A stretch of DNA of 64,000 nt from an archaeon (GTDB lineage Archaea; Iainarchaeota; Iainarchaeia; Iainarchaeales; DTGL01), in contig JAPDKC010000009.1 of assembly GCA_029258755.1 (NCBI GenBank), positions 46,967 to 110,966 of the forward strand. Direction: 5' to 3'. Within the stretch, counting starts at the first letter, position 1. Each line of letters starts with the position of its first letter. The position numbers were made by a program, and so were the translations under genes. A model generated the notes under the pieces. That model was not told the DNA's origin, ran no database searches, and saw only the letters and a program-made list of their open reading frames with translations. Shown one piece after another: positions 822-19,311 of this stretch.

Positions 822-1050
822 GCTACCTCGCTAAGATTCTGCTTAATATTTTTGTGAAAAAACAGTATAAAAAATGTTTGTAGCGTTCTGAGCCTGCAAG
901 CGGGTATAGACACAGAAGAATTAGCACGCCCAGGCCGTGCCAGACCTTTGGAAATCTCCGCCCCAAGCCTTTATTATTCCGGTGCGATTACTAATAGTGC
1001 TAAACTCATATTTAATTCTTTTGTTCTATAAATAATTGTAAATATTAATT

Positions 1051-5688: not shown

Positions 5689-6837
5689 TCAGCAAACCCT
5701 AAAACCCGTGTATTCTCTCCTCTTTTCCGGGATCTCCCTTATGAACTCTTCCAGATACCTTTTAACCTGCAGCGCTTCATCTATGCTCTTTATCTGCTCC
5801 TTCGTTTTGAGGTTTATCAGCTTTGTTTGCTTGCCTCTTCCGATTTTGATCAAGAACTCCTCTTCAGCCTCGCCGTTTCCATTCTCTTCGAACTTCTCGA
5901 GCTTCCTCAACCGCTTCAGCAGTTTCCTCTTCTGCTCCTCCACTTTCTGGGTGAACACCTTAACAGGATCGAGGATGAAGTAGTTTCTCGGCGTTGTGTT
6001 TGAGCATCTTACCAATCCGCAGTTTATGAGCTCCTTCAGAACAGCGTAAACAGTTGCCTTGCAGATGCCGGTTTCGTCCATTATCTGCTTTGCGGTTTTG
6101 ACCTCGCTTGAAAGAAGGTTGCAGCGCTTCAGCTTCCTCATGCAGAGCTCTGCCCTTATGTCCAGCTGATTCAATGCAGTTTCTTTGTCTTTGAATGCTT
6201 TGGTATTGCATGGAACGACGATGTAGAATAGCCTGTTCCTAACAGCGTTTTCCTCAATGAAATCCTGAACGAACCTTTTGAAAGCCTGGAACTGCTCCCA
6301 TAATTTTTTCGACTTTCTCTTCTCAACTTCAAGCCCCAGATCAGCCAGATACTCATTGAGCGAGAGGTTCACGGTTCTCACAACTATCTGAATCGGGAAG
6401 CTCAATGCATTGAGAAAGTCGCGGAAAGCACTTATTACTGCTTTCTGCTCCATTGCGGAGAGCATGGAAAAGCTTATCGGCACCACCTGCAGAACAGCGC
6501 AGGCTTTGCCATCATCGAGGATTATCGCATCCCTTTCAACTCTCGAAACCCCTACAAAACGCCTAGCTTTCTCATCGAAGTAACCTGCTTTTGTGCCTGA
6601 GAGCTTGAACGAAACGATAGCTTTGAGCTTTTCAAAGAGGTTGAAGAATGCAAAGGAAACGCCGAGAGAGATCAAAACAAGGGAAAGCCCGACTTTTAGC
6701 TCAAAAAGCATTGCAGTTTTGAAGAATATTACTGCTGCAATGCCGGTAAATAAGCCTAACCAGAAAAGCTGCGGAAGGCTGAGCCCGAAGAGGATCTTTT
6801 CCTCATACTTAAGCTCTTTTGGAATCTCATAAGCCAT
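5689..6837 (-). CDS. PrgI/VirB3-like 2-TM domain plus VirB4-N-terminal-like domain plus C-terminal winged-HTH; no ATPase domain
   Basis: KELKYEEKILFGLSLPQLFWLGLF matches the PrgI/VirB3 family N-terminus, with two TM helices. The following region (DAIILDDGKACAVLQVVPISFSMLSAMEQKAVISAFRDFLNAL) resembles the VirB4/TrbE N-domain. The C-terminus is a wHTH (ETGICKATVYAVLKELINCGLV) plus coiled coil. No Walker A is present. Confidence 0.4.
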   Translation of the reverse strand: MAYEIPKELKYEEKILFGLSLPQLFWLGLFTGIAAVIFFKTAMLFELKVGLSLVLISLGVSFAFFNLFEKLKAIVSFKLSGTKAGYFDEKARRFVGVSRVERDAIILDDGKACAVLQVVPISFSMLSAMEQKAVISAFRDFLNALSFPIQIVVRTVNLSLNEYLADLGLEVEKRKSKKLWEQFQAFKRFVQDFIEENAVRNRLFYIVVPCNTKAFKDKETALNQLDIRAELCMRKLKRCNLLSSEVKTAKQIMDETGICKATVYAVLKELINCGLVRCSNTTPRNYFILDPVKVFTQKVEEQKRKLLKRLRKLEKFEENGNGEAEEEFLIKIGRGKQTKLINLKTKEQIKSIDEALQVKRYLEEFIREIPEKRREYTGFRVC

Positions 6838-6887
6838 TGCAAGACCTCGCAGAAAGGTTTAAATATTCCTGAAAGATAGTTTTAAGT

Positions 6888-7286
6888 ATGATAAAAAATA
6901 TTGCAAAACCATCAGGGGAAGAATCCAAAGGGAAATTTGACTGGGTTAAAAATTCTGCTTTAGCCGTGATCTTTTCCGCTGTCGCGCTTTGGGTTACTGC
7001 GTTCCCCTTTTTTATTAGAGGATTCTTCAAAGGGGCAAATAGGGAATTATTAGTCTTATTTGTTATTATCACGCAGTCCATTTTGGTTCCAGCTGTGCTT
7101 GTAGTCTCTTTGATAGGGCTAGCTTTGGGGGTTGTGGGGTTGATTTTAGAGCTTAGAAAGGCTGAAAAGGACCGCATCAGGCTGTTGACAGCAGTAATGG
7201 CCATTTGCGGTAATTTATTTGCTTTTATGGGCGCATTTGAAGTAGCGGCGCCGGTTTTTGTTCTTTCGTTTTGGAAGTATTTTTGA
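6888..7286 (+). CDS. Small multi-TM membrane protein (hypothetical); the strand call is uncertain
   Basis: 132 aa with 3-4 clear TM helices. The competing minus-strand ORF 6827..7294 is low-complexity (T/S/K/N-rich), as expected for an antisense reading of a hydrophobic gene. Confidence 0.3.
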   Translation: MIKNIAKPSGEESKGKFDWVKNSALAVIFSAVALWVTAFPFFIRGFFKGANRELLVLFVIITQSILVPAVLVVSLIGLALGVVGLILELRKAEKDRIRLLTAVMAICGNLFAFMGAFEVAAPVFVLSFWKYF

Positions 7287-7293
7287 TAGGCCA

Positions 7294-8256
7294 TTATATC
7301 ACGGCTCCTGTAACAGCTTTTGCAACAACCACAAGCTCGGGGTTCTGAGATGCAACCGAGGATAGGCCTTTCAATATTGCAATAACCAAAATTGCCGCAT
7401 TCACAACAGCCGCAACAATGAAGCCCACAGCAAGCGCGAATGTTCCAAAGTACTCAAGCGATGCAAACTGAGTTGTGAGCATGGAAATGCCTAAAAGCAA
7501 AGCGGCATCGATAACCTGCATGAACACGATTGCACCGAAGAAGTTCAGAATCACAGAATCCCAAGCGCGCAAAGGAATTATGAAGTAGAGGAAAATTCCT
7601 ATTGGGATGAAAATCACACCCAAAATCAAAAAGAGCTGGCGCAGTAAAAGGGTTATTGCAAGCAAGAGTGCTCCAAAAGCGTAAAAAACAATCCAGAGCA
7701 AATTCAGGGCATCGAGCTGAGCTATATCAAACAGCGAATCGAGCTTTTCAGTCCAGATTGTCAGAGCAACAGCAGAGCTGAGCTGGAGCATAAGAGAATA
7801 GAGCAGAAGAGAGGCGTTGACAGCAACCACAATAACAACAGCGTTTTTCAGCCACTCCTTTGCGCTTTTCCTCTGCACAGCATCGTACGAACCAAGAAGA
7901 AACTTCAAACCTGCAAAAACGAACAGCAAAAGGTAAAAGCAAGAGATTACTGAAACAATCACGAGCCACAGATCCTGAAAATCGTAAGGGTTTATGTTGT
8001 TCAGAACCATTGCTTTTATGAAATCGAGGATCGGAGCTACAAAGGAAACAACTGTGCCTTTGAAGGAGTCCAGAATCGCATTTGCAACGTTGCAGGCAGG
8101 TTCGAAACGGAATCCCAGAGGCCTGCGCTCGCGTTTGAGAGCAAAAGCACAAGAAACAAAAGCGGCATTAAGAAACGAGCTCTCACAGCAGACCACCCAG
8201 TACTTTTTTTGCTGCAAAAAGTGTTGCGAAGTAGAGCGAAACAAATATGCTTCCAT
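7294..8256 (-). CDS. Polytopic integral membrane protein (VirB6/CedA-like?)
   Basis: At least 6 TM helices across about 240 aa. It sits in the operon between the pilin-like and VirB3/B4-like genes. The true start may be the internal Met (MVLNNINPYDF...). Confidence 0.4.
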   Translation of the reverse strand: MEAYLFRSTSQHFLQQKKYWVVCCESSFLNAAFVSCAFALKRERRPLGFRFEPACNVANAILDSFKGTVVSFVAPILDFIKAMVLNNINPYDFQDLWLVIVSVISCFYLLLFVFAGLKFLLGSYDAVQRKSAKEWLKNAVVIVVAVNASLLLYSLMLQLSSAVALTIWTEKLDSLFDIAQLDALNLLWIVFYAFGALLLAITLLLRQLFLILGVIFIPIGIFLYFIIPLRAWDSVILNFFGAIVFMQVIDAALLLGISMLTTQFASLEYFGTFALAVGFIVAAVVNAAILVIAILKGLSSVASQNPELVVVAKAVTGAVI

Positions 8257-8443
8257 CGAAAGCGGTTTTTCCAGCTTTTTTGAGAGTAAACGAGAAAGTG
8301 CTTTGCTTTGGTGGTTCGGATATACTCAAAGCAACCGAACTCTGCGCGTATGGACCCTTCAGAATCCGAACTCAGGAATTCGGTTTTCGCTACGCCGTTT
8401 TCATCGGTTAGCGCTTTTATTCTCTGCCTGCCGTTGAAGAAAA

Positions 8444-9646
8444 CTATTTCCTTATTTGCAAGGGTTTTCCGTTTGAGGTGAGAACAGCGGTTGCAAGTAC
8501 ATAATCGTTCTCTGAAAAGCTGCCGGAATTGAGAGAAAGTGAGAGCTCTGCGGGCTTTGCTTCAATTAAACACTTATTGCTCAGATCGAACTCTTCGAAT
8601 GCGGAATAAAGCTTCATTTTGCAGGCAGGGGCTTTCGCAAAGCCAAGCTTAATGAGCTTTCTTTTTGGGCTGAGATTGGAATTAAGATCTATTAAGCCGC
8701 GCGCTGATTTTCCAAGAGCGCTTTTGCGGACCACGAAAAGAACACCGTAAGGCTTGAGTGTTGAAGCAATGTCGAAGTTTTCTTCGGAAAAGGAAAAGCT
8801 GTTCTTGCCAAAAGAAACTGTGAACTCATTTACCGGCATGGTTGATTCAATCATGTAGCGGGCTTCACTTATGCCATCTTTGAGCTCAACAGCGCTCGCG
8901 AGATTGAAGTCAAAGAAATAAGCCTTTGCTCTGAACTCATCGCTCAGCTTTAAGGAATCTGTTCGCTCTGTTGTTTTGTAGTAGTCGCATGAGGTCCAGC
9001 AGTAGATTGTGCATACCTCATTGCAGAACTGCGCGCAATGCGACTGCTTTCGAAAATGCTTTTCAATGAGCTTTGCTTTTATGAACAGCTCTGCTGAAAA
9101 ATTCAGATCTTTTTCTTTGCCTGCCGAGTAGCTTGAAACTTTTTGCGAGCCTATTTTTGAGCCATTGAGGAAAACGCTAAGATTGTCTGCAAGCACTTTG
9201 TAGGAGCGCTCTGTTTTGCAGTCGTGCTCTGCTGTGTCTTTTGGCAATACAATTTCAAAATTGCCTGCCACTAGCACCCTGCCGCTTGGCTCAGCATACC
9301 ATTGGTTGGAATCGAGATCAAAGAAAGATCTATCAATAGCAATTATCTTCAGCCAAGCGTTTTTTATTATGCCTGAGCTGTGCTGCTGCAAGTTAGCGGG
9401 CGCTTCGCTGAAATTGAGCGAGTTGTTCCAATTCCAAATGAAAGCATAATCCGGCAGTACGCCCTGCTTGCTTAGAAGGTTGAGATACAGATCCTCTTTT
9501 TGCTCAACGCTGAGGGATTCATCTGCAAGGATGTTCTCGCACTCTGACTTTTTCCAGCCGTTGAGATGATCGCAGTTGGCTGGCAGTATTGCTGAGTAAG
9601 CCGAGGTAATCAACAGTATGCAAAACAAAGCAACAAAGCCTTTCAT
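8444..9646 (-). CDS. Secreted cysteine-rich protein (signal peptide), hypothetical
   Basis: N-terminal signal MKGFVALFCILLITSAYSA and multiple Cys clusters (CDHLNGWKKSEC; HCAQFCNEVCTIYCWTSCDYY). No recognised domain. Confidence 0.45.
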   Translation of the reverse strand: MKGFVALFCILLITSAYSAILPANCDHLNGWKKSECENILADESLSVEQKEDLYLNLLSKQGVLPDYAFIWNWNNSLNFSEAPANLQQHSSGIIKNAWLKIIAIDRSFFDLDSNQWYAEPSGRVLVAGNFEIVLPKDTAEHDCKTERSYKVLADNLSVFLNGSKIGSQKVSSYSAGKEKDLNFSAELFIKAKLIEKHFRKQSHCAQFCNEVCTIYCWTSCDYYKTTERTDSLKLSDEFRAKAYFFDFNLASAVELKDGISEARYMIESTMPVNEFTVSFGKNSFSFSEENFDIASTLKPYGVLFVVRKSALGKSARGLIDLNSNLSPKRKLIKLGFAKAPACKMKLYSAFEEFDLSNKCLIEAKPAELSLSLNSGSFSENDYVLATAVLTSNGKPLQIRK

Positions 9647-9655
9647 GGAATCTCC

Positions 9656-9979
9656 TTAAGCTGCTGTTAAGAAGTTAACCAAGTATGGAGCGATCCAGAT
9701 TATGAGCAGGCCCATTACTGCATAAGAAAGCATCTGCTTGGCGCTTTCTCTTGCCTGTATGTTCTCGCCGGAAGCCATGAAGCGGAAGCCTGCAAATGTA
9801 ATAACCAAGACAGCAACAATGGAAATTAGTGTTTGCACAACCGTGTATATGCGCTCCAATGGCTCCTTTATTTTTTGCAGGTTCTCATCGCTGGTATCAG
9901 CTGCGTGCACAAAAGGCGCAGCTGAAAGCATAAAGAAAATCAAAGTCGGGACCAAAAGAGGAATTAAAGCTTCTTTCAT
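9656..9979 (-). CDS. VirB2/TrbC-like (CedA1-like) small 2-TM pilin-like protein
   Basis: 107 aa: a signal-like N-terminus ending AAPFVHA, then two hydrophobic helices separated by a short polar loop. An SD-like GGAGGTG lies 5 nt upstream of the ATG. Confidence 0.4.
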   Translation of the reverse strand: MKEALIPLLVPTLIFFMLSAAPFVHAADTSDENLQKIKEPLERIYTVVQTLISIVAVLVITFAGFRFMASGENIQARESAKQMLSYAVMGLLIIWIAPYLVNFLTAA

Positions 9980-10095: not shown

Positions 10096-10923
10096 TTATT
10101 TTTCTAAATAGGCTATTGTTTTTTCTATTAGCTCAGATACTTCCAAAAATCTGCCTACTATAATCTTTTTTCGGAGAGCTTCTTCTGTTTCCTTAAAATC
10201 GGGATAACGTGCACCAACATATTTAACAAGCACCATTGACAGAACACTAAATATGAGCAAAAGAATATACGTCTTTTTCAGTGTTTTGTATAGAAAGTTA
10301 AAATTAAATCTTTTCTTATTAGCTAACTTAGCTTCTTTCAGCAAGCGACTTGAGGAAAATATGGAAGACTGTATCGCTAAAAGTTGAATAGAGTCTATCT
10401 TGGCCATTTTTTTGATACTTTTAATTAATTTAGGATACTCCTCAATCAAGTTTGCAATAGTTTCATCTTCAGAGCTTTTCAAAGAAATTTTATTAAGATT
10501 TAGGCTTTTAAGGTAATTTTTCACCTTTTTGATAGCACTTTTATCACATCCAGCGATTTTTAACGTGTAGCTTTCCAAAGAACTTAAATTGGAAAGCCAT
10601 TTATCCCTAAATGGTTTGAGCATTTTAATTAATTGATCTACCCAGTCATGGCCAAACTCTTTTAAAGAGTTAACTTTGAATTTTTCTAAACCAAATCTAC
10701 GTAAAAGCTCTTCATTCTCGTTTGAAAACACTTCTTGAGGCCATAAAAGGCCTATGTCTACAATCGCTCCTTTGCTGGCTTTCTCTACAGATTGTTGAAG
10801 AGCAAATAATGCCTGTGGGTAATATCTGTGAGCGTAGGCATACTTGGCCATTTCTAAGTCTCTCTTGGCGTACTCATACCATTTTTTTGAATCCAAACAA
10901 AGACAATGTTTAGAGTTCTTCAT
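10096..10923 (-). CDS. HEPN-domain protein with C-terminal TM segment
   Basis: The N-terminus YEYAKRDLEMAKYAYAHRYYPQALFALQQSVEKASKGAI resembles the HEPN fold. A hydrophobic segment (ILLLIFSVLSMVLV) lies near the C-terminus. Confidence 0.35.
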   Translation of the reverse strand: MKNSKHCLCLDSKKWYEYAKRDLEMAKYAYAHRYYPQALFALQQSVEKASKGAIVDIGLLWPQEVFSNENEELLRRFGLEKFKVNSLKEFGHDWVDQLIKMLKPFRDKWLSNLSSLESYTLKIAGCDKSAIKKVKNYLKSLNLNKISLKSSEDETIANLIEEYPKLIKSIKKMAKIDSIQLLAIQSSIFSSSRLLKEAKLANKKRFNFNFLYKTLKKTYILLLIFSVLSMVLVKYVGARYPDFKETEEALRKKIIVGRFLEVSELIEKTIAYLEK

Positions 10924-11750: not shown

Positions 11751-12266
11751 TTAATAATCCTCCGGCTTCATAAATGTACAGCTGCAACCATCAAGCACAA
11801 CCCATATTCTGCCCTTTTCAATCACTCGTAATCTCATATATTCTGTATCTTCTGGATCCGGCTTCTTAAGAAGCTCAATTCCTTTCTTTACAATTTCCTT
11901 GTAATTGTCCTTTACTTCTTCGAATAGGTTCATTGTGAAAACTATTGGCTTTCCATTAGCAAATTCACCTACCTTTACCAGAACACCATCTTCAATCGCC
12001 TGCTCAAGCGGATAGCTGTCAATCACTTCGCCGAAGAATTCTTCTGGAGAAGGAGCGGCCGTTTTCTGGCCACTCCCGTTGTTTCTTATGCGCTTCACTT
12101 CGAACTCAAGGAACTGATTAAGTCTGTTTGTTAATTCCTGCTTTACCTCGAGCATGTCATCGGTTTCTTCAAGCGCAACAGTAGCACCAATGAGTATGCC
12201 TTTGCTTTCATAGTTGCCAAGGTTGATCTTTCTGGAAACGCTTACTGTGAGCTCTTTAAGCTTCAC
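11751..12266 (-). CDS. Hypothetical protein
   Basis: 171-aa ORF with no recognisable motif. Confidence 0.35.
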   Translation of the reverse strand: MKLKELTVSVSRKINLGNYESKGILIGATVALEETDDMLEVKQELTNRLNQFLEFEVKRIRNNGSGQKTAAPSPEEFFGEVIDSYPLEQAIEDGVLVKVGEFANGKPIVFTMNLFEEVKDNYKEIVKKGIELLKKPDPEDTEYMRLRVIEKGRIWVVLDGCSCTFMKPEDY

Positions 12267-12629: not shown

Positions 12630-13316
12630 TTAACGTCTAGACGGCCATTTTTTCCTGTTTTCGTTAATAAATCTCGCGGGAGAAACTGCAATAATGGGTG
12701 GTTTAATATCCCCAGTACTTTTGCCAAATTTTTCTAATAATTCAGAATCATTAGTGATAAAATACTTACAACCTTGGTAAACTGCTTGGGCAAGCAGATG
12801 AGCATCATTGCATAATAAACCGTGTTCTGAAATAAAAACCCCTGCTATTCCAAATAATTCTTTACTTTCTCTTGCTATTTTTGCATGTTTTTTAAGTTTA
12901 TTAAAGTATTCTTTGTTTTTAAGATAAATATCAAGATAAGTTCCTTTGGGAAATTTTTCTTTTCTTAATCTATAAAACTCTTCAATGGGAATAAAATTTC
13001 TATCCATATATCTTAAAATGTATTTTTCAAAAAGGACACTTAGAACTTCGGTCATGACCAGAGGCGAATAATAAAATTCGAAACCTTTGTTTTCACGGCA
13101 GACAAAGTGTTCAACGAATTCATACGACTGATAAAAAGTTTTTATGTATTTGTTACTATTAGTCCTTTGTTGTTCAATAAAGTCATTCTTTTCTTTTGTT
13201 GTTTGTTTTTGTGCAAGCAACGAATGAAAAATCAGCCAGTTAGCAATTACATTTGAATCAATTAAAGATTTTATCACAATTCTTGCATTTCCTCCAACCT
13301 TTTTTACTGGAGGCAA
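12630..13316 (-). CDS. PIN-domain protein
   Basis: Acidic residues at PIN positions: LIDSNVI ... VMTEV ... ITNDSELL. Confidence 0.4.
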   Translation of the reverse strand: MPPVKKVGGNARIVIKSLIDSNVIANWLIFHSLLAQKQTTKEKNDFIEQQRTNSNKYIKTFYQSYEFVEHFVCRENKGFEFYYSPLVMTEVLSVLFEKYILRYMDRNFIPIEEFYRLRKEKFPKGTYLDIYLKNKEYFNKLKKHAKIARESKELFGIAGVFISEHGLLCNDAHLLAQAVYQGCKYFITNDSELLEKFGKSTGDIKPPIIAVSPARFINENRKKWPSRR

Positions 13317-13962: not shown

Positions 13963-14589
13963 CTATTTCCATAATATCATGTTTTCTTTGTTCTCAATTT
14001 TCTCTTCAATTATTCTGAAGTAGTGATCATCGCCGGCGTTGAATTTTCTGTTTATGCTCCATGCAACAAAATCCACCACCTGCAGCTCGTTGCTGGCAAA
14101 AGATGGCTTGTGGAATATCTCTATATCCAACTCCTTGCACTTTCTTTTCAGCTTCCTCTTAATATAGCCATTGAAGTCCTCTCTCACAAGAGTGTTTGTA
14201 TGTTTTTTATCTATTGTGATTATCACTTTTCCTTTGTCCAAATTGAGCTCGTTTAGCAGTATGCCACACAGGTAATTGTAAAGCTTGTTCTTCACATCGA
14301 AAAGATAATCTTTAATCTTGTTTTTCTCAACAACTATGGCAAAAATGCGGCAGTCTGTTCTCTTAATTCTTTCTAGCACATATTCTCTTATCCGTTGGTT
14401 AGACTTGTTCGCTTTGATTTCAGGCATTTGCTTTATGGTTTTCTTCAGCTTTATCTGTCTCAGCCTTTTGATTATTCTTGCTAATTTCTTCGGCTCATCA
14501 ACCAAAACAGCAGCAACTGTGAAATACTTTGAGCCGAACTTTCCCAGATCACCGCTCTCATCTATGCAAACATAGTTAAGCCAGCCCAT
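13963..14589 (-). CDS. DUF3800-family protein
   Basis: N-terminal YVCIDESGD motif characteristic of DUF3800. Confidence 0.5.
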   Translation of the reverse strand: MGWLNYVCIDESGDLGKFGSKYFTVAAVLVDEPKKLARIIKRLRQIKLKKTIKQMPEIKANKSNQRIREYVLERIKRTDCRIFAIVVEKNKIKDYLFDVKNKLYNYLCGILLNELNLDKGKVIITIDKKHTNTLVREDFNGYIKRKLKRKCKELDIEIFHKPSFASNELQVVDFVAWSINRKFNAGDDHYFRIIEEKIENKENMILWK

Positions 14590-14720: not shown

Positions 14721-15138
14721 ATGGGGGCTGGTTGTATGCATGCAAAAGAGGACTCTCTATCGGATTCTGAAATAACAGCAAAGCTTCTGGAGTTCATGTT
14801 GAGGAACAGAAAGGAGCTGAAGTTTGTTTTTGAGGAGCTTGAAAAGTACAGAATGTTAAAAGCACGGGGTGGTGGTGTTGGAGTACAAGGATCTGAAGCA
14901 CTTCGAACAGGTGCACGGAAAGCTGTTTGTGTATCTCCTTGAAGAGCTGGATAAATTCATGAGGGGATCTGATGAGGGATCTGAGCCGGAGGAGATTCAA
15001 CTCAAATAATCCGCAGGCAAACTACATAAAAATTCAGGAGAGGATTGACTCTTTGGAGCACAGGTTGAGGGAATTGGACCAGCTTATAATTGAAGGGATG
15101 AGCAGAATAAGCGAGCTGGAGAATAAGTCGAATACGTG
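14721..15138 (+). pseudogene. Coiled-coil hypothetical gene broken into three successive reading frames
   Basis: Frame 1 covers 14721-14942, frame 3 from about 14868 to 15008, and frame 2 from about 14973 to 15138. Each picks up where the previous one stops. The first junction sits at an A4 run. Confidence 0.35.
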
Positions 15139-15193
15139 AAAAAGGTTCGGGTAAACGCCTGTTTTAAATTGCATTGGCACAGTTGGTAATCTT

Positions 15194-16600
15194 TTAAAAC
15201 CCCGGGGGTCTACGATGCTCATAACGTCCTTTGAATAATGTGCTTTTTTGTTTAGTAGATTTCCTTTGCCTCTTGCCTTGAACTTTTTGATAACCTCTCA
15301 CTCTCACGGGTTTTTTAGTCAGATTATTTTCCATTTGATAAAGCTGTTGCCTTGTTTTTATCTTTTTCTTGTATAAGCTTACAAATCTTGGAAGATCTGT
15401 TGCGAGGACAGCGACGGTTTCTTTTATTAAGTTCAAACCTAACATGGAAAAAATTGCAGGGGCTACCCTGTCATCACTGACCTCAGTGCATATTTCACTG
15501 CCGATATCTGGCCGAATTATTTTTAAATTATCTTTAATAATGTCCTCGATAGATTTTATCCAAAACTGCGAAATCCAATCCCCTAACAGGATTTTAAGCA
15601 ACCTAAAAATAAAAATTTTTAAAATTTCTTCATCAATTTTTTCAAGTGTCTCCCTCTTTTCTTCTAAAGACTTCATAAACTTACGTAGTCTATCGTCATG
15701 AATGTTCTCGATTGTTTCCTCCTCAGTTATTCTTCCAGAGAAAGAAAGGGAAGTAGTAATAAGTTGGCTTAAAATTTCAATGTCACTCTTGCTAGGTTCT
15801 TTACCCTCCCTCTCTTTCTGCAAGATACTTGCTGCCTTAAGACCTGCGTAGTAAAAAGCTTTTTTTGAAAGATAGGGGGTAGAATTTGCGCGTAGCTTTT
15901 CAAGCAGGTCTGCTTTAAATTCTTTAGTTGCATAGTTGGGAGCAAGGATTTTTTCAATGAACTTTTTATCCTCAAAGGGCAAGCTTGGGGATACCACGAA
16001 ATCGCCGTTGTTTATATCTTTTGAAAAAACATATACGGCAGATATCTCCGCAAATTTGCCATCTCTGCGCGACAACGTTTTATAGGTCTTGATCCATTTA
16101 GGCTGTAAACTCTCGTCACCGCCATCTTTTACAAAGAAAAATTTTGCCGAATCTCGCCCTTCTTCAAAATACCTCAAACTGAGTGTTATTTTTTCACTTA
16201 CATTTATCTCTAAAAAGACGATATATGGCCCAACTATTCCTTTTTTTGCCCTCCTTAAAGCATCGTACAGGGCATTCCAATCATGTTTCCCAAATTCCCA
16301 ACATAAGGTCTTCAAACCAGACGGTTTCTTATCTATCTTTAGTTCTTCGAGGGAAACGGTTTTAACTTCAACAAAAAATTCAGTGCCATCTAAAATTATC
16401 CTGTAGTCAGGAGTCTTGCTCGTGTGCTCTAAAGAAGGTTCGTATTCAATCTCATCCGCACCTTTATCTATGAAAAAGAACCCAACCTTAACTTCGGGAA
16501 GTGTTTGTCTAGGTCGCCTCTTTAAATTTTCAATCAATTTTTTATTATTTTTTATTGCATAAAGTCGCTCATCATTTAAAAGACTCTCAGTTTCGCTCAT
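15194..16600 (-). CDS. PD-(D/E)xK nuclease-fold protein, 468 aa (hypothetical)
   Basis: Textbook motif PDYRIILDGTEFFVEVKT (PD-x12-E-x-K) in the N-terminal third. A basic tail (KKPVRVRGYQKVQGKRQRK...) follows. Confidence 0.45.
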   Translation of the reverse strand: MSETESLLNDERLYAIKNNKKLIENLKRRPRQTLPEVKVGFFFIDKGADEIEYEPSLEHTSKTPDYRIILDGTEFFVEVKTVSLEELKIDKKPSGLKTLCWEFGKHDWNALYDALRRAKKGIVGPYIVFLEINVSEKITLSLRYFEEGRDSAKFFFVKDGGDESLQPKWIKTYKTLSRRDGKFAEISAVYVFSKDINNGDFVVSPSLPFEDKKFIEKILAPNYATKEFKADLLEKLRANSTPYLSKKAFYYAGLKAASILQKEREGKEPSKSDIEILSQLITTSLSFSGRITEEETIENIHDDRLRKFMKSLEEKRETLEKIDEEILKIFIFRLLKILLGDWISQFWIKSIEDIIKDNLKIIRPDIGSEICTEVSDDRVAPAIFSMLGLNLIKETVAVLATDLPRFVSLYKKKIKTRQQLYQMENNLTKKPVRVRGYQKVQGKRQRKSTKQKSTLFKGRYEHRRPPGF

Positions 16601-16665
16601 AACAATAACGGGCTACCAAAACATTTAATATTTAATTATCTCACACAGAATCCTGCAACAAATCC

Positions 16666-17895
16666 TTAAAGTTCCCTATTTTGCCCATCTAAAAGTAACT
16701 GCTGCTGCATTGAAGCCAAAATCTGCTGAACTCTGTCAGGATTCGCCTTTGAAAGGCTCTTGACCATATCTAACAGCTGAACCAGAACAATTGAGCTTTT
16801 CTCATCCAGATGCTTTATCTCGTCCACTTCGTATTGGGCTGAAGGTTTCAATGGAAGCCAGCACTTCTCGCAGTATTCAAAGGTGACATCGTTTACATGG
16901 CTACAGCGGGGGCACTTCAAAGGCTTCAGAATATCTTCTTTCTTTTCCTCCTTCTTCAGACCGTAGAGTTTCAGGATTGCATCGTCCATCTGCTTGCCGC
17001 TCAAGTGCACATAGCGAGCTGCCATATCCGAATCGCGGACCCATCCAAAGTATTCTTTCATCTGCGCTTCCGTCAAGAACTGCGCCAAGTAGGTTGCTCT
17101 GGAGTGTCTGAAGTTGTGCGGGTTCACAGGTTTTTTCAGGCCTACCCTTCTTGCAATTTTGTGAAGCTGGAGCCTTAGTGCATCATAAGTCATCAAAGAA
17201 ACTTTGTCCACATTTGTGCTGACCCAGAGAGGCGCTTCCGGATCCTCTCTTCTGGGATGGTGGTTTATCCACTCCAGAAGGTAAAGAGCAGCACTAACCA
17301 GGCGGATTCTTCGCATGCCTGTTTTTCCGTTTATTGTGATCTTACAGCCAAATTCATCAAAGGCGACATGCTTTATTTTCATTGTTCCGATTTCGCCAGC
17401 TCTCGCACCGGATTCCCAGAGGACCGCAACAAGCGCTTTGTCCCGTTTGTTCTCGCAGAATTTGAGAAGAAGCTTTACATCCTCTGGTGTGAGCAGCTCC
17501 TCAGGAAGCTTCTTGATTCGGTTTTCCTTGACACGCATCCAAGCAACACATTCTGGGTACTCGTTGTTGCCGTTGAGCCACTTGTGGAACACTTTAAGGA
17601 CCTTGATGTAGGTGTGCACGGTTTCTTGAGATAGCCCCCTTCTCTTGAGCTCTGCTATGAATTTCATGTAATCTTCCTTTGTGGCTTTATCAAAGTCTTT
17701 ACCCAAAGCGATAGCAACAATTTTCAGAATATTTGTTTGTCTTGATATTCTCGCAACACTGAGATCTCTGGCAAAGTTGTAGTCGTGGAATTTGAGAATC
17801 AGCTCTTTGTTGTGCTTCGATATCTTTTTGGATTTTTTAATGGATTCTATTTCCTTATCTAAAAGCTTCTTATAATCGTGGAATTTTTCATACAT
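16666..17895 (-). CDS. Tyrosine-type site-specific integrase/recombinase
   Basis: C-terminal catalytic region contains R (WESGARAGE), HNFRHSRATYL and ARYVH. An N-terminal SAM-like core-binding domain is present. Confidence 0.85.
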   Translation of the reverse strand: MYEKFHDYKKLLDKEIESIKKSKKISKHNKELILKFHDYNFARDLSVARISRQTNILKIVAIALGKDFDKATKEDYMKFIAELKRRGLSQETVHTYIKVLKVFHKWLNGNNEYPECVAWMRVKENRIKKLPEELLTPEDVKLLLKFCENKRDKALVAVLWESGARAGEIGTMKIKHVAFDEFGCKITINGKTGMRRIRLVSAALYLLEWINHHPRREDPEAPLWVSTNVDKVSLMTYDALRLQLHKIARRVGLKKPVNPHNFRHSRATYLAQFLTEAQMKEYFGWVRDSDMAARYVHLSGKQMDDAILKLYGLKKEEKKEDILKPLKCPRCSHVNDVTFEYCEKCWLPLKPSAQYEVDEIKHLDEKSSIVLVQLLDMVKSLSKANPDRVQQILASMQQQLLLDGQNREL

Positions 17896-17955: not shown

Positions 17956-18096
17956 AAAAAGCCAACGCCCAGGCCGGGATTCGAACCCGGATCGCAGCCT
18001 TCCTGCAATTTGCTGAATATTAGCAGCGGGTTGCTGGGGATAATAAGGACCCGCTGGAGGTCCTTATTTCGACAGGGCTGCATCCTAACCCTTAGA
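17956..18096 (-). tRNA. tRNA-Asp(GTC) with a 69-nt intron in the anticodon loop
   Basis: Minus-strand read: acceptor GCCCAGG/CCTGGGC, T-arm CCGGGTTCGAATCCCGG, anticodon stem CAGCC/GGCTG with loop CT-GTC-G...A. The intron forms strong hairpins (AATAAGGACC/GGTCCTTATT). No CCA is encoded. Confidence 0.6.
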
Positions 18097-18156
18097 CTAC
18101 CTGGGCACAGCTTAATAAATTATAAGTTAGGTGCAAGGTTTAAAAAATAATTACTT

Positions 18157-19311
18157 TCAGAGAGGCTCAAGAACATATATCAGGCGCTCGATTTTGTGCC
18201 ATTCTTCTTTGTAAAGAAAAGGAACGCTTACACCTATAGGCAAAGCTTCAGTTGCATTAAAAATTCTAAAACCATGCTTTTTCATTATTTTGTTCATATC
18301 GATTGTAAAAACTCTTGAGCTTTTCGTTCTAAATTGAGGGATAACAATTACAATCTTTCCGTTTTCCTTTAAAACAAACCTTGCCTCATTGAAAAATTTT
18401 TCGTAGAGGGTTTGTAGCTTATTGCATATATATTTTGCTTCTTTTTCCGTAGGTAACGACTTTAGCAGCGGCCCAAGTTCTGGCTCAGTAACGATAGCAT
18501 CGAAGCTTTCTCTTCCAAAATACTTCGAAAGCTTTGTAGCATCGCCTTTCTTTATCTCAAAGCTTTGTTTTATCCCATATTTTTTCTTTACCCATTCTAG
18601 GTTTGCGATGCTTTTTCTTACTCTTGCTTCACTAATCTCTAATCCTTTAACATTAAAACCGCTCAGCATCGCTTCTTGCAAAATAGTGCCTATACCACAA
18701 AAAGGATCCAGCATAGTTGCCTTTGGTCTAACACAACTTAAATTTACTAATATTCTTGCAATTCTTATAGAGCTCATTATTTCTGGCTCTTTAAATGGTC
18801 TGCATTCATCACGCTCCTTGAATTTGTACGGATCTGAACAAGCAATAGTTTTGCCAATCCAATATTTTTGCTCTTTCACTGCAATTATATCTAAGCAGTT
18901 ATGCAATCTTTTAGCCAAAGTATGCGGCGCTAATCTCTTGCGCACGGCTTTCAGTCGATAATCCTTAAATATTTTCTTTAGAGTTCCTCTTATTTCTGCT
19001 TCATTAGTGTTGTAGGTGCTTATAGAGTAAATAAGTTTATTCGAGCTGCTTTCATAGAGCTCTTCCTGAGCGAGTTTTCGTTTTAGCTCTTCAGCTTTGC
19101 ATCTAAATAATACCTTTGCGATTTTGACAGTACCTGCAAGCTCATTTATAACTTCGCTAGCATCTATTGTTTCTACTCTTGCAATAACCCCTTCCCTGAA
19201 CCATATCAATGGCTTGAAGCCCATGTTTCTGGCCTTAAAATAGCTTACTAATTCCAAATAAGAAAGCTTTGGGTTTCTTCCAAATAGAAATATATATTGC
19301 AAGCAGGGCAC
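18157..19311 (-). CDS. THUMP-domain tRNA (guanine-N2)-methyltransferase (Trm14/Trm11 family)
   Basis: An N-terminal THUMP-like region, then class I MTase motif I LDPFCGIGTIL and motif IV AIVTEPELG. Confidence 0.5.
   Translation of the reverse strand: MPCLQYIFLFGRNPKLSYLELVSYFKARNMGFKPLIWFREGVIARVETIDASEVINELAGTVKIAKVLFRCKAEELKRKLAQEELYESSSNKLIYSISTYNTNEAEIRGTLKKIFKDYRLKAVRKRLAPHTLAKRLHNCLDIIAVKEQKYWIGKTIACSDPYKFKERDECRPFKEPEIMSSIRIARILVNLSCVRPKATMLDPFCGIGTILQEAMLSGFNVKGLEISEARVRKSIANLEWVKKKYGIKQSFEIKKGDATKLSKYFGRESFDAIVTEPELGPLLKSLPTEKEAKYICNKLQTLYEKFFNEARFVLKENGKIVIVIPQFRTKSSRVFTIDMNKIMKKHGFRIFNATEALPIGVSVPFLYKEEWHKIERLIYVLEPL

Follow-up and report, generated by a model that had tools for sequence, protein, structure and literature searches.

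New families of PD-(D/E)xK nucleases are found routinely, and among the described proteins of this superfamily the one of greatest relevance here, viz. SfsA (PF03749; annotated as 'DNA/RNA nuclease SfsA'), is encoded by a widespread chromosomal gene. SfsA and YraN proteins share an 'ID-EVK' signature (PMC1189080), and the superfamily as a whole is known for the extreme divergence of its sequences (PMC3424549, PMC1189080). The present work concerns a protein of 468 amino acids (aa), which is encoded on the minus strand at positions 15194..16600 of a 64,000-nucleotide (nt) stretch of archaeal DNA (contig JAPDKC010000009.1; this whole stretch is referred to here as the window), and in which a nuclease motif of the PD-(D/E)xK type had been noticed in an earlier reading of the sequence (the original prediction). 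The protein is the founder of an orphan family of four members, and its gene lies beside an integrase at a tRNA gene of a DPANN archaeon, a group whose mobile elements and defence repertoires are poorly known. Based on the comparisons described below, it is likely that the conserved N-terminal part of this protein has a PD-(D/E)xK fold with an active site composed of E54, D65, E78 and K80, and the interpretation as a nuclease fold, which is also that of the original prediction, is the best one available for this protein.

A small family with a conserved N-terminal module

The gene for the 468-aa protein is a complete open reading frame (ORF) with an ATG start, and the beginning of the protein, MSE(T/I)E, is retained in two of its homologs (P0001 and P0002, see below). 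As had been claimed, it contains the motif PDYRIILDGTEFFVEVKT (aa 64-81; positions 16358..16411, minus strand), which reads P64-D65-x12-E78-V-K80-T81 and in which a predicted beta2-turn-beta3 hairpin carries the candidate catalytic D/E, E and K residues. The description of this protein as unannotatable is likewise borne out by the results of database searches, as no match for it was found in Pfam, NCBIfam, PADLOC, PHROGs or PDB sequences, and searches of the PDB sequences with its N-terminal module, by phmmer as well as with a profile, also gave nothing.

Homologs of this protein were sought by means of word-indexed searches of 5.8 billion protein clusters, which were run twice (the second time with the N-terminal half alone), and by comparing an HMMER profile exhaustively with 1.84 billion representatives, which stand for ~15 billion proteins. 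Only three relatives were identified by these searches, viz. P0001 (415 aa; 46-49% identity), which is full length except for the basic tail and comes from the locus L001; P0002 (230 aa; 96-97% identity), which is from a near-identical metagenomic copy of the element (L002); and P0003 (225 aa; 44-45% identity), which is a stand-alone form of the N-terminal module from the locus L003. No further members came to light when GTDB genomes, IMG/VR and contigs of JGI metagenomes were scanned by pattern and tblastn, or in tblastn searches of phage and plasmid collections. The homologs, being extremely rare and all found in variable contexts, are not housekeeping proteins; homologs of the housekeeping kind had been named in the original prediction as something that would refute it.

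Comparison of the four proteins divides the 468-aa protein into three parts. The N-terminal module (aa 1-225; 15926..16600, minus strand), which is predicted to be the nuclease domain of PD-(D/E)xK type, is present in all four members, where it shows 72 invariant positions, and it also occurs alone. The second part is an all-alpha C-terminal module (aa 226-427; 15320..15925, minus strand), which is optional, as it is common only to the window protein and P0001 (~38-40% identity) and is absent from both P0002 and P0003. Its comparison with Pfam and PDB gave nothing informative, the matches consisting of helical-bundle noise (GST_C_7, interferon-gamma, cytochrome b562), and in an AlphaFold2 (AF2) model it is made up of helices with a predicted local distance difference test (pLDDT) score of 50-65. 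The third part is a K/R-rich tail (aa 428-468; 15197..15319, minus strand), in which 15 of 41 residues (37%) are K or R; this tail, which had been correctly described as highly basic, is absent from P0001 and unique to the window copy. The earlier statement that the remaining 330 aa are helical and devoid of a recognisable domain is thus correct in regard to the domain, but this region is not a single entity: it comprises the rest of the ~225-aa module, the optional helical module of ~200 aa and the non-conserved basic tail.

The C-terminal half of this protein is separable and also dispensable, at least for the persistence of the element, because P0003 is a natural stand-alone N-terminal module and L002 is a deletion variant. 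P0003 stops at the end of the N-terminal module with a genuine stop codon, and the ORFs downstream of it are unrelated. In the case of L002, blastn alignment with the window shows that positions 1-812 correspond to 16729-15918 (98.3% identity) and positions 813-1435 to 15261-14638 (93.3%), so that a segment of 656 bp (15262..15917) is missing and a frameshift truncates the gene product (P0002) to 230 aa. The DNA for the basic tail is retained in L002, where it is out of frame with the truncated gene, and at the junction (812/813) an imperfect short repeat, AAAGAA / AAAGGAA, is seen. Within the N-terminal module the L002 and window genes differ at 14 positions (9 nonsynonymous and 5 synonymous), all of which are located in codons 155-223, whereas the first 154 codons and the 129 nt upstream of them are identical. 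This distribution suggests that a recombination (mosaic) boundary may be present inside the nuclease gene, and since all 14 differences cluster in these codons, the ratio of nonsynonymous to synonymous change (dN/dS) relative to L002 provides no usable measure of selection.

Evidence bearing on a PD-(D/E)xK nuclease fold

The residues which are expected to form the active site are conserved in the family. P64, [D/E]65, E74, E78 and K80 are conserved in 4/4 members, with P64, E78 and K80 being invariant, and E36, E50, E52 and E54 are invariant in all of them. At the level of the sequence, the predicted beta2 thus begins with a conserved acidic residue and the predicted beta3 carries a conserved (D/E)-x-K throughout the family, with the hydrophobic context of the strands being present as well. 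The invariant acidic strand E50-I-E52-Y-E54 (16439..16453, minus strand) is the predicted beta1, and its last residue, E54, is a candidate for the fourth active-site residue. On the other side of the motif, F103-G-K-H-D107...R116-x-x-K119-K120-G121 forms a basic helix that is followed by the strand Y126-IVFLEIN133 (16207..16293, minus strand; predicted alpha2-beta4), where R116, K119 and K120 of the helix, ahead of the hydrophobic strand 126-133, are invariant in 4/4 members. A basic alpha2 and a hydrophobic beta4 have been described for the superfamily (PMC3424549), and aa 103-133 of the N-terminal module agree with this description.

A second line of evidence comes from the comparison with SfsA. 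Among 24,736 Pfam models searched with permissive thresholds, SfsA (PF03749) was the sole family matched by more than one member of the family (viz. the window protein and P0001), and these matches (E-values 0.04-0.19) were always located at the ExK strand. When the family was aligned by hhalign with a profile of SfsA, built from sequences verified against PDB 4DAP and 4DA2, a score of 29.4 (P=0.0014) was obtained, and in this alignment D65 was superposed on D121 of SfsA and E78-V-K80 on E135-V-K137, with the helix after ExK also being aligned. None of 200 column-shuffled queries reached this score (mean 13.7, maximum 24.3), the reversed query scored 12.3, and 15 unrelated proteins from the window gave scores of 11-19.6. 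Under relaxed settings the match was co-linear over ~140 columns, and the invariant E54 was placed on the invariant E110 of SfsA, the spacing of E54 and D65 (11 residues) being the same as that of E110 and D121; the confidence of this alignment is low outside residues 65-120, and in an alternative alignment based on a single sequence E36, rather than E54, was placed on E110.

Several observations weigh against the nuclease-fold interpretation and need to be taken into account. First, the motif had been called textbook, but when this K/E-rich protein is shuffled with its composition preserved, 53% of the shuffles contain the bare pattern P[DE]-x8-25-[DE]xK, and the bare motif by itself is therefore not significant; further, the canonical Asp at position 65 is Glu in two of the four members (P0001 and P0003), and D71 is not conserved, being N in P0003. 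The motif with its hydrophobic context, hh[DE]hK, occurs in 3% of the shuffles, and with the full two-strand hydrophobic context in 5e-5 of them, where the pattern used was defined post hoc. Second, the Pfam scores for SfsA are only 12-14 bits (best 14.2) in comparison with a gathering cutoff of 22.8, and the hhalign probability for the SfsA match is just 17%. As SfsA was picked after the Pfam hint, these two signals are not independent of each other; the signal is carried largely by ~17 residues around EVK, and a single SfsA sequence scores 20.9, which is barely over the best of the controls (19.6). Third, neither Hjc (both a mini-alignment and a single sequence were tried, with the reference sequence verified against PDB 1GEF) nor the NucS/YhcG-like nuclease aligns at the motif by hhalign. 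Lastly, AF2 models based on alignments of the four sequences reached a pLDDT of 38 for the full-length protein and 34 for the N-terminal module, which is too low for the models to be usable, and Foldseek searches of the PDB with both of these low-pLDDT models yielded noise only. The order of elements in both poor models, viz. a helix at 3-27, strands at ~36-42, 65-70 and 73-78, a helix at 105-119 and a strand at 127-132, is compatible with a PD-(D/E)xK fold.

In view of these points, the main alternative to be considered is that this protein is not a nuclease, and that the motif belongs to a conserved beta-hairpin in a different alpha/beta fold, or to a nuclease-like scaffold that has lost its activity, the protein having a structural, regulatory or binding role on the mobile element. 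The low model quality, the sub-threshold SfsA scores, the frequency of the bare motif in shuffles and the replacement of Asp by Glu would all be in accordance with this possibility, and the fold has in fact been noted outside of nucleases and in inactive members as well, of which RecC is an example (PMC3424549). However, at 44-49% identity all of the three or four candidate catalytic residues are either invariant or conservatively substituted, whereas an inactivated scaffold is expected to lose them. Further, the single Pfam family matched above noise is a PD-(D/E)xK family and it is aligned exactly on the catalytic residues, and the two-strand hydrophobic context in its full form would rarely arise by chance. 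Based on these considerations, a protein that is not a nuclease is unlikely, while still being the most serious of the alternatives. The nuclease-fold interpretation is thus supported in part, by the retention or conservative substitution of the motif residues in all members and by the placement of the SfsA alignment on the catalytic residues; the structural models, with their low pLDDT, speak neither for nor against it.

If the nuclease-fold interpretation is correct, then the catalytic part would consist of the N-terminal ~225 aa, in which a long N-terminal helix is followed by beta1 with E50/E52/E54, beta2 beginning at P64-D/E65, beta3 with E78-V-K80, the basic helix (R116, K119, K120) and the hydrophobic beta4 (aa 126-133). 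E54, D65 and E78 would bind a divalent metal (Mg), and K80 would activate or position the water, as in the 'ID...EVK' enzymes of SfsA/YraN type. The all-alpha C-terminal ~200 aa would then be a separable accessory module, for which target recognition, oligomerisation and regulation are candidate roles, and the basic tail of the window copy may add non-specific binding of nucleic acids.

Genomic context and possible function

The nuclease gene is preceded, 65 nt upstream and on the same strand, by a gene for a XerA-like tyrosine integrase (16666..17895, minus strand; Pfam Phage_integrase 9e-19, NCBIfam XerA_Arch 1.5e-31, which is below cutoff, and PHROG integrase 5.5e-34), and the DUF3800 gene (13963-14589, minus strand) lies on its other side after ~600 nt with small ORFs; the placement of this gene between the integrase and DUF3800 had thus been given correctly. 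Beyond the integrase is a tRNA-Asp(GTC) gene with a 69-nt intron (17965..18107, minus strand; Rfam 48.9 bits), which serves as the integration site and forms one boundary of the element. This intron-containing tRNA was missed by ARAGORN with default settings, but was found both by Rfam and by aragorn -i. Synteny with related genomes ends at the 3' end of tRNA-Asp. A radical-SAM protein encoded nearby shares 81-84% identity with its counterparts from three Candidatus Iainarchaeum metagenome-assembled genomes (MAGs), with conserved synteny, and judging from this similarity the host belongs to the DPANN archaea and is closely related to Candidatus Iainarchaeum. In one such MAG (AUK092; L006:14220-15471), the same segment of tRNA and integrase is present with 94% nt identity (integrase 97.7% aa identity), while the host proteins of this genome are 62-82% identical to those of the window and its host genes ~70-75% identical at the nt level. 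Because the segment is so much more similar than the host proteins are, its sequence indicates that this is a mobile element, which has been transferred recently between Iainarchaeum species. Between the host methyltransferase and tRNA-Asp, L006 also contains ~1.3 kb of unmatched DNA (L006:12923-14220), which is absent from the window.

In regard to the far boundary of the element, a search for a direct att repeat of the tRNA 3' end found none that was convincing. An exact 12-nt copy of the 3' end of tRNA-Asp, ACGCCCAGGCCG, is present at 926-937 (plus strand), 17 kb from the tRNA; with an E-value of 0.17 this match is probably due to chance, though it could mark the far att site, and the genes located between it and tRNA-Asp include metabolic ones (SDR, PALP enzyme and RpiB). 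No empty site was recovered, as the sequence of the related genomes runs out at the tRNA or close to it.

The cargo from the integrase to ~10100 includes the nuclease gene, a 55-aa coiled-coil ORF and genes for DUF3800, PIN-like and HEPN proteins. The DUF3800 protein shows a weak match to PADLOC PDC-M04A (E-value 0.0016), the PIN-like protein (12630-13316, minus strand) is 228 aa long and the HEPN-domain protein (10096-10923, minus strand) 275 aa. A protein of 171 aa (11751-12266, minus strand) weakly resembles one segment of SWI2/SNF2 proteins and of type I and Dnd restriction enzymes, and it may be a fragment.

The loci of the homologs provide further information in this regard. The neighbours of P0001 (L001:1-11427) include a PDC-S01 AAA_14/DUF4143 ATPase (3e-103), a NucS_C/YhcG-like nuclease, AbiEi (1e-46), a type II N6/N4 methylase and a RecD/PIF1 helicase with a WYL domain, and from this gene content it is evident that L001 is a dense defence island. 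The methylase in this locus overlaps convergently with an unannotated ORF of 342 aa, which is a candidate restriction enzyme. The gene for P0003 closes a cluster of four genes (L003:826-3458, plus strand), which are tightly packed and all read in one direction, and whose other products are a Cys-rich protein of 392 aa and proteins of 162 and 101 aa, none with a Pfam match; the 392-aa protein, the sole cluster partner compared with PADLOC, showed no match there. Possibly, this cluster represents a form of the system that is made up of several genes. The DNA of L002 diverges just past the small ORFs, and two unrelated genes stand in the place of DUF3800. An all-against-all BLASTP comparison of the ORFs from the window, L001, L002, L003 and L006 revealed no neighbour that is common to independent loci. 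The co-occurrence with DUF3800 or with integrases, which had been proposed as a check of the original prediction, is thus not found.

Based on these contexts, we hold with moderate confidence that the protein is a stand-alone, metal-dependent PD-(D/E)xK nuclease, which is carried as exchangeable cargo by archaeal mobile elements and is likely directed against foreign nucleic acids. When mobile elements or viruses come into conflict, it would then cleave nucleic acid of foreign origin in a restriction-like manner, though without a cognate methylase. The earlier suggestion of a standalone defence nuclease is made plausible by the defence island around P0001 and by the location of the window copy beside HEPN, PIN-like and DUF3800 proteins, and a role in defence or conflict is in this sense plausible; a role in defence specifically, which we infer from these neighbours, is put forward only tentatively. 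It is weighed down by a number of facts: the argument is one of guilt by association and draws on essentially two independent contexts, L003 being uninformative; no conserved partner gene and no cognate methylase in the element are seen; and among the models of PADLOC-DB v2, the 468-aa protein matches 0 families at E<=1. A more far-reaching proposal is that the protein represents a new single-protein immune or conflict system that is specific to mobile elements of uncultured archaea, those of the DPANN group included. In such a system, the SfsA-like module would be the effector and the helical C-terminal module a novel sensor or regulatory domain, which operon partners would replace in the stand-alone form (L003) and which would be swappable or losable (L002). 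We regard this proposal as improbable at present.

The preferred interpretation as a nuclease against foreign nucleic acids needs to be distinguished from one in which the enzyme works for its own element, either as a structure-specific or junction-resolving enzyme or as an accessory of integration, excision or replication that is co-expressed with the integrase. The gene follows that of the integrase at a distance of 65 nt and in the same orientation, which is consistent with such a role, as is the retention in L002 of the integrase 3' end and the spacer. In addition, the SfsA/YraN 'ID-EVK' group is related to archaeal Holliday-junction resolvases (PMC1189080), and the helix after ExK is co-linear with that of Hjc, with a low score. 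However, no integrase is present within the available sequence of either L001 or L003, and the copy of the element in L002 carries a truncated and frameshifted gene, which argues against an essential role. Further, Hjc does not align at the catalytic motif, and L001 is a defence island rather than a module for replication or recombination. An A/T-rich box, ATAATTAAATATTAAAT (16623..16639, minus strand; read by eye), situated ~25-40 nt upstream of the ATG, could possibly be an archaeal TATA element, which would provide the nuclease gene with its own promoter and would also speak against this role. A scan for promoters and terminators used a bacterial consensus, and as the host is an archaeon, it is uninformative here. 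Taking these observations together, a function in the service of the element itself appears rather doubtful.

The 55-aa coiled-coil ORF (14972..15139, plus strand) is convergent with the nuclease gene and lies 55 nt from its stop codon. In comparison with L002 it shows 11 nt differences, which lead to only one aa change, with 8 of the 11 at third codon positions and 0 at second positions, and on the strength of this pattern it is probably a real small gene under purifying selection. That its product could be a partner or regulator of the nuclease is speculative. The idea that the nuclease acts as a toxin in a toxin-antitoxin or abortive-infection pair, with the 55-aa protein as the antidote or regulator, could draw on the proximity and the strong purifying selection of this ORF and on the HEPN and PIN-like cargo, which is typical of toxin-antitoxin modules, but it is very improbable, as no relative of the 55-aa ORF is present beside P0001 or P0003, the ORF is intact in L002 despite the truncated nuclease, its convergent orientation is atypical for toxin-antitoxin operons and its similarity to other proteins is of a generic coiled-coil nature only.

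Farther from the nuclease gene, a block of genes at 5689-9979 (minus strand) has a G+C content of 0.44-0.45, which is higher than that of its surroundings (0.33-0.41). Its products are a TrbC/VirB2-like pilin (9656-9979, minus strand), a PrgI/VirB3-like domain fused to a TrmB-type helix-turn-helix (5689-6837, minus strand) and three proteins without assignment. This block thus provides a DPANN archaeon with components of type IV secretion or Ced/Ted-like kind; no VirB4-like ATPase was seen near the block.

Comparison with known nuclease systems

The similarity of this protein to type II and type IV restriction endonucleases and to NucS/YhcG-like proteins lies in the combination of a predicted PD-(D/E)xK domain with an accessory domain. 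At the motif, no alignment with the NucS/YhcG-like protein from L001 is obtained. Assignment to a type II restriction-modification pair was rejected: the sole methyltransferase nearby (18157-19311) is located beyond the tRNA and outside of the element, and it is a host gene, syntenic in the related genomes L004-L006. In L001, a type II methylase is present two genes from P0001, but it is convergently paired with another ORF, and in L002 and L003 no methylase was found, except for a weak DrmMII-like fragment in L002 (E-value 1.6e-4). With the nucleases of defence islands, this family shares its location in variable cargo or islands and the fast turnover of its neighbourhoods; it differs from them in that it has no cognate methyltransferase in the element, no known modified-base reader domain and no match to a PADLOC model.

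YraN and the Hjc/Hje-like proteins are 120-140 aa long, and the module of the window protein is ~225 aa. The aligned part of Hjc is confined to the helix following the ExK strand, where G-K-[HR]-D...RR..G is co-linear with a low score, and membership in the Hjc/Hje group was rejected (hhalign score 14.7, P=0.18), as only this helix, and not the motif, is aligned. A short D-x12-E-V-[KR] hairpin of equal spacing is common to these proteins and the window protein, in the case of YraN/UPF0102 presumably so and in agreement with the 'ID-EVK' description (PMC1189080).

SfsA, which is represented by structures from E. coli (PDB 4DAP) and Pyrococcus furiosus (4DA2), is the only profile match above noise. 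It shares with the window family a common signature, E-x10-D-x12/13-E-V-K followed by [ST]-V-[ST]-L-x-E, and then a helix and a hydrophobic strand. However, SfsA contains an N-terminal OB-fold (PF17746), whereas no match to PF17746 is seen here and a long helix is predicted instead. The window family also has an extra strand (aa 38-44) before the aligned beta1 and a longer connection between beta3 and alpha2, two of its members carry an unrelated helical C-terminal module, and it comprises four members, all in variable or mobile contexts. Membership in the SfsA family was rejected on the basis of the score, which lies below the gathering threshold (14.2 vs 22.8 bits), and the lack of the OB-fold domain. 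The family is tiny, and these results do not challenge current understanding. If the interpretation is true, it would extend the PD-(D/E)xK superfamily by a further family, which is very rare and has diverged strongly, and it would give a first idea of what a cargo gene does on a DPANN integrative element that moves between Iainarchaeum species; as a stand-alone nuclease with an accessory domain, the protein is a reasonable candidate for experimental defence screens. In relation to the described systems, it is probably a distant relative of the minimal PD-(D/E)xK nucleases of SfsA/YraN type, which together with its three homologs probably constitutes a previously undescribed, very small family of this known superfamily.

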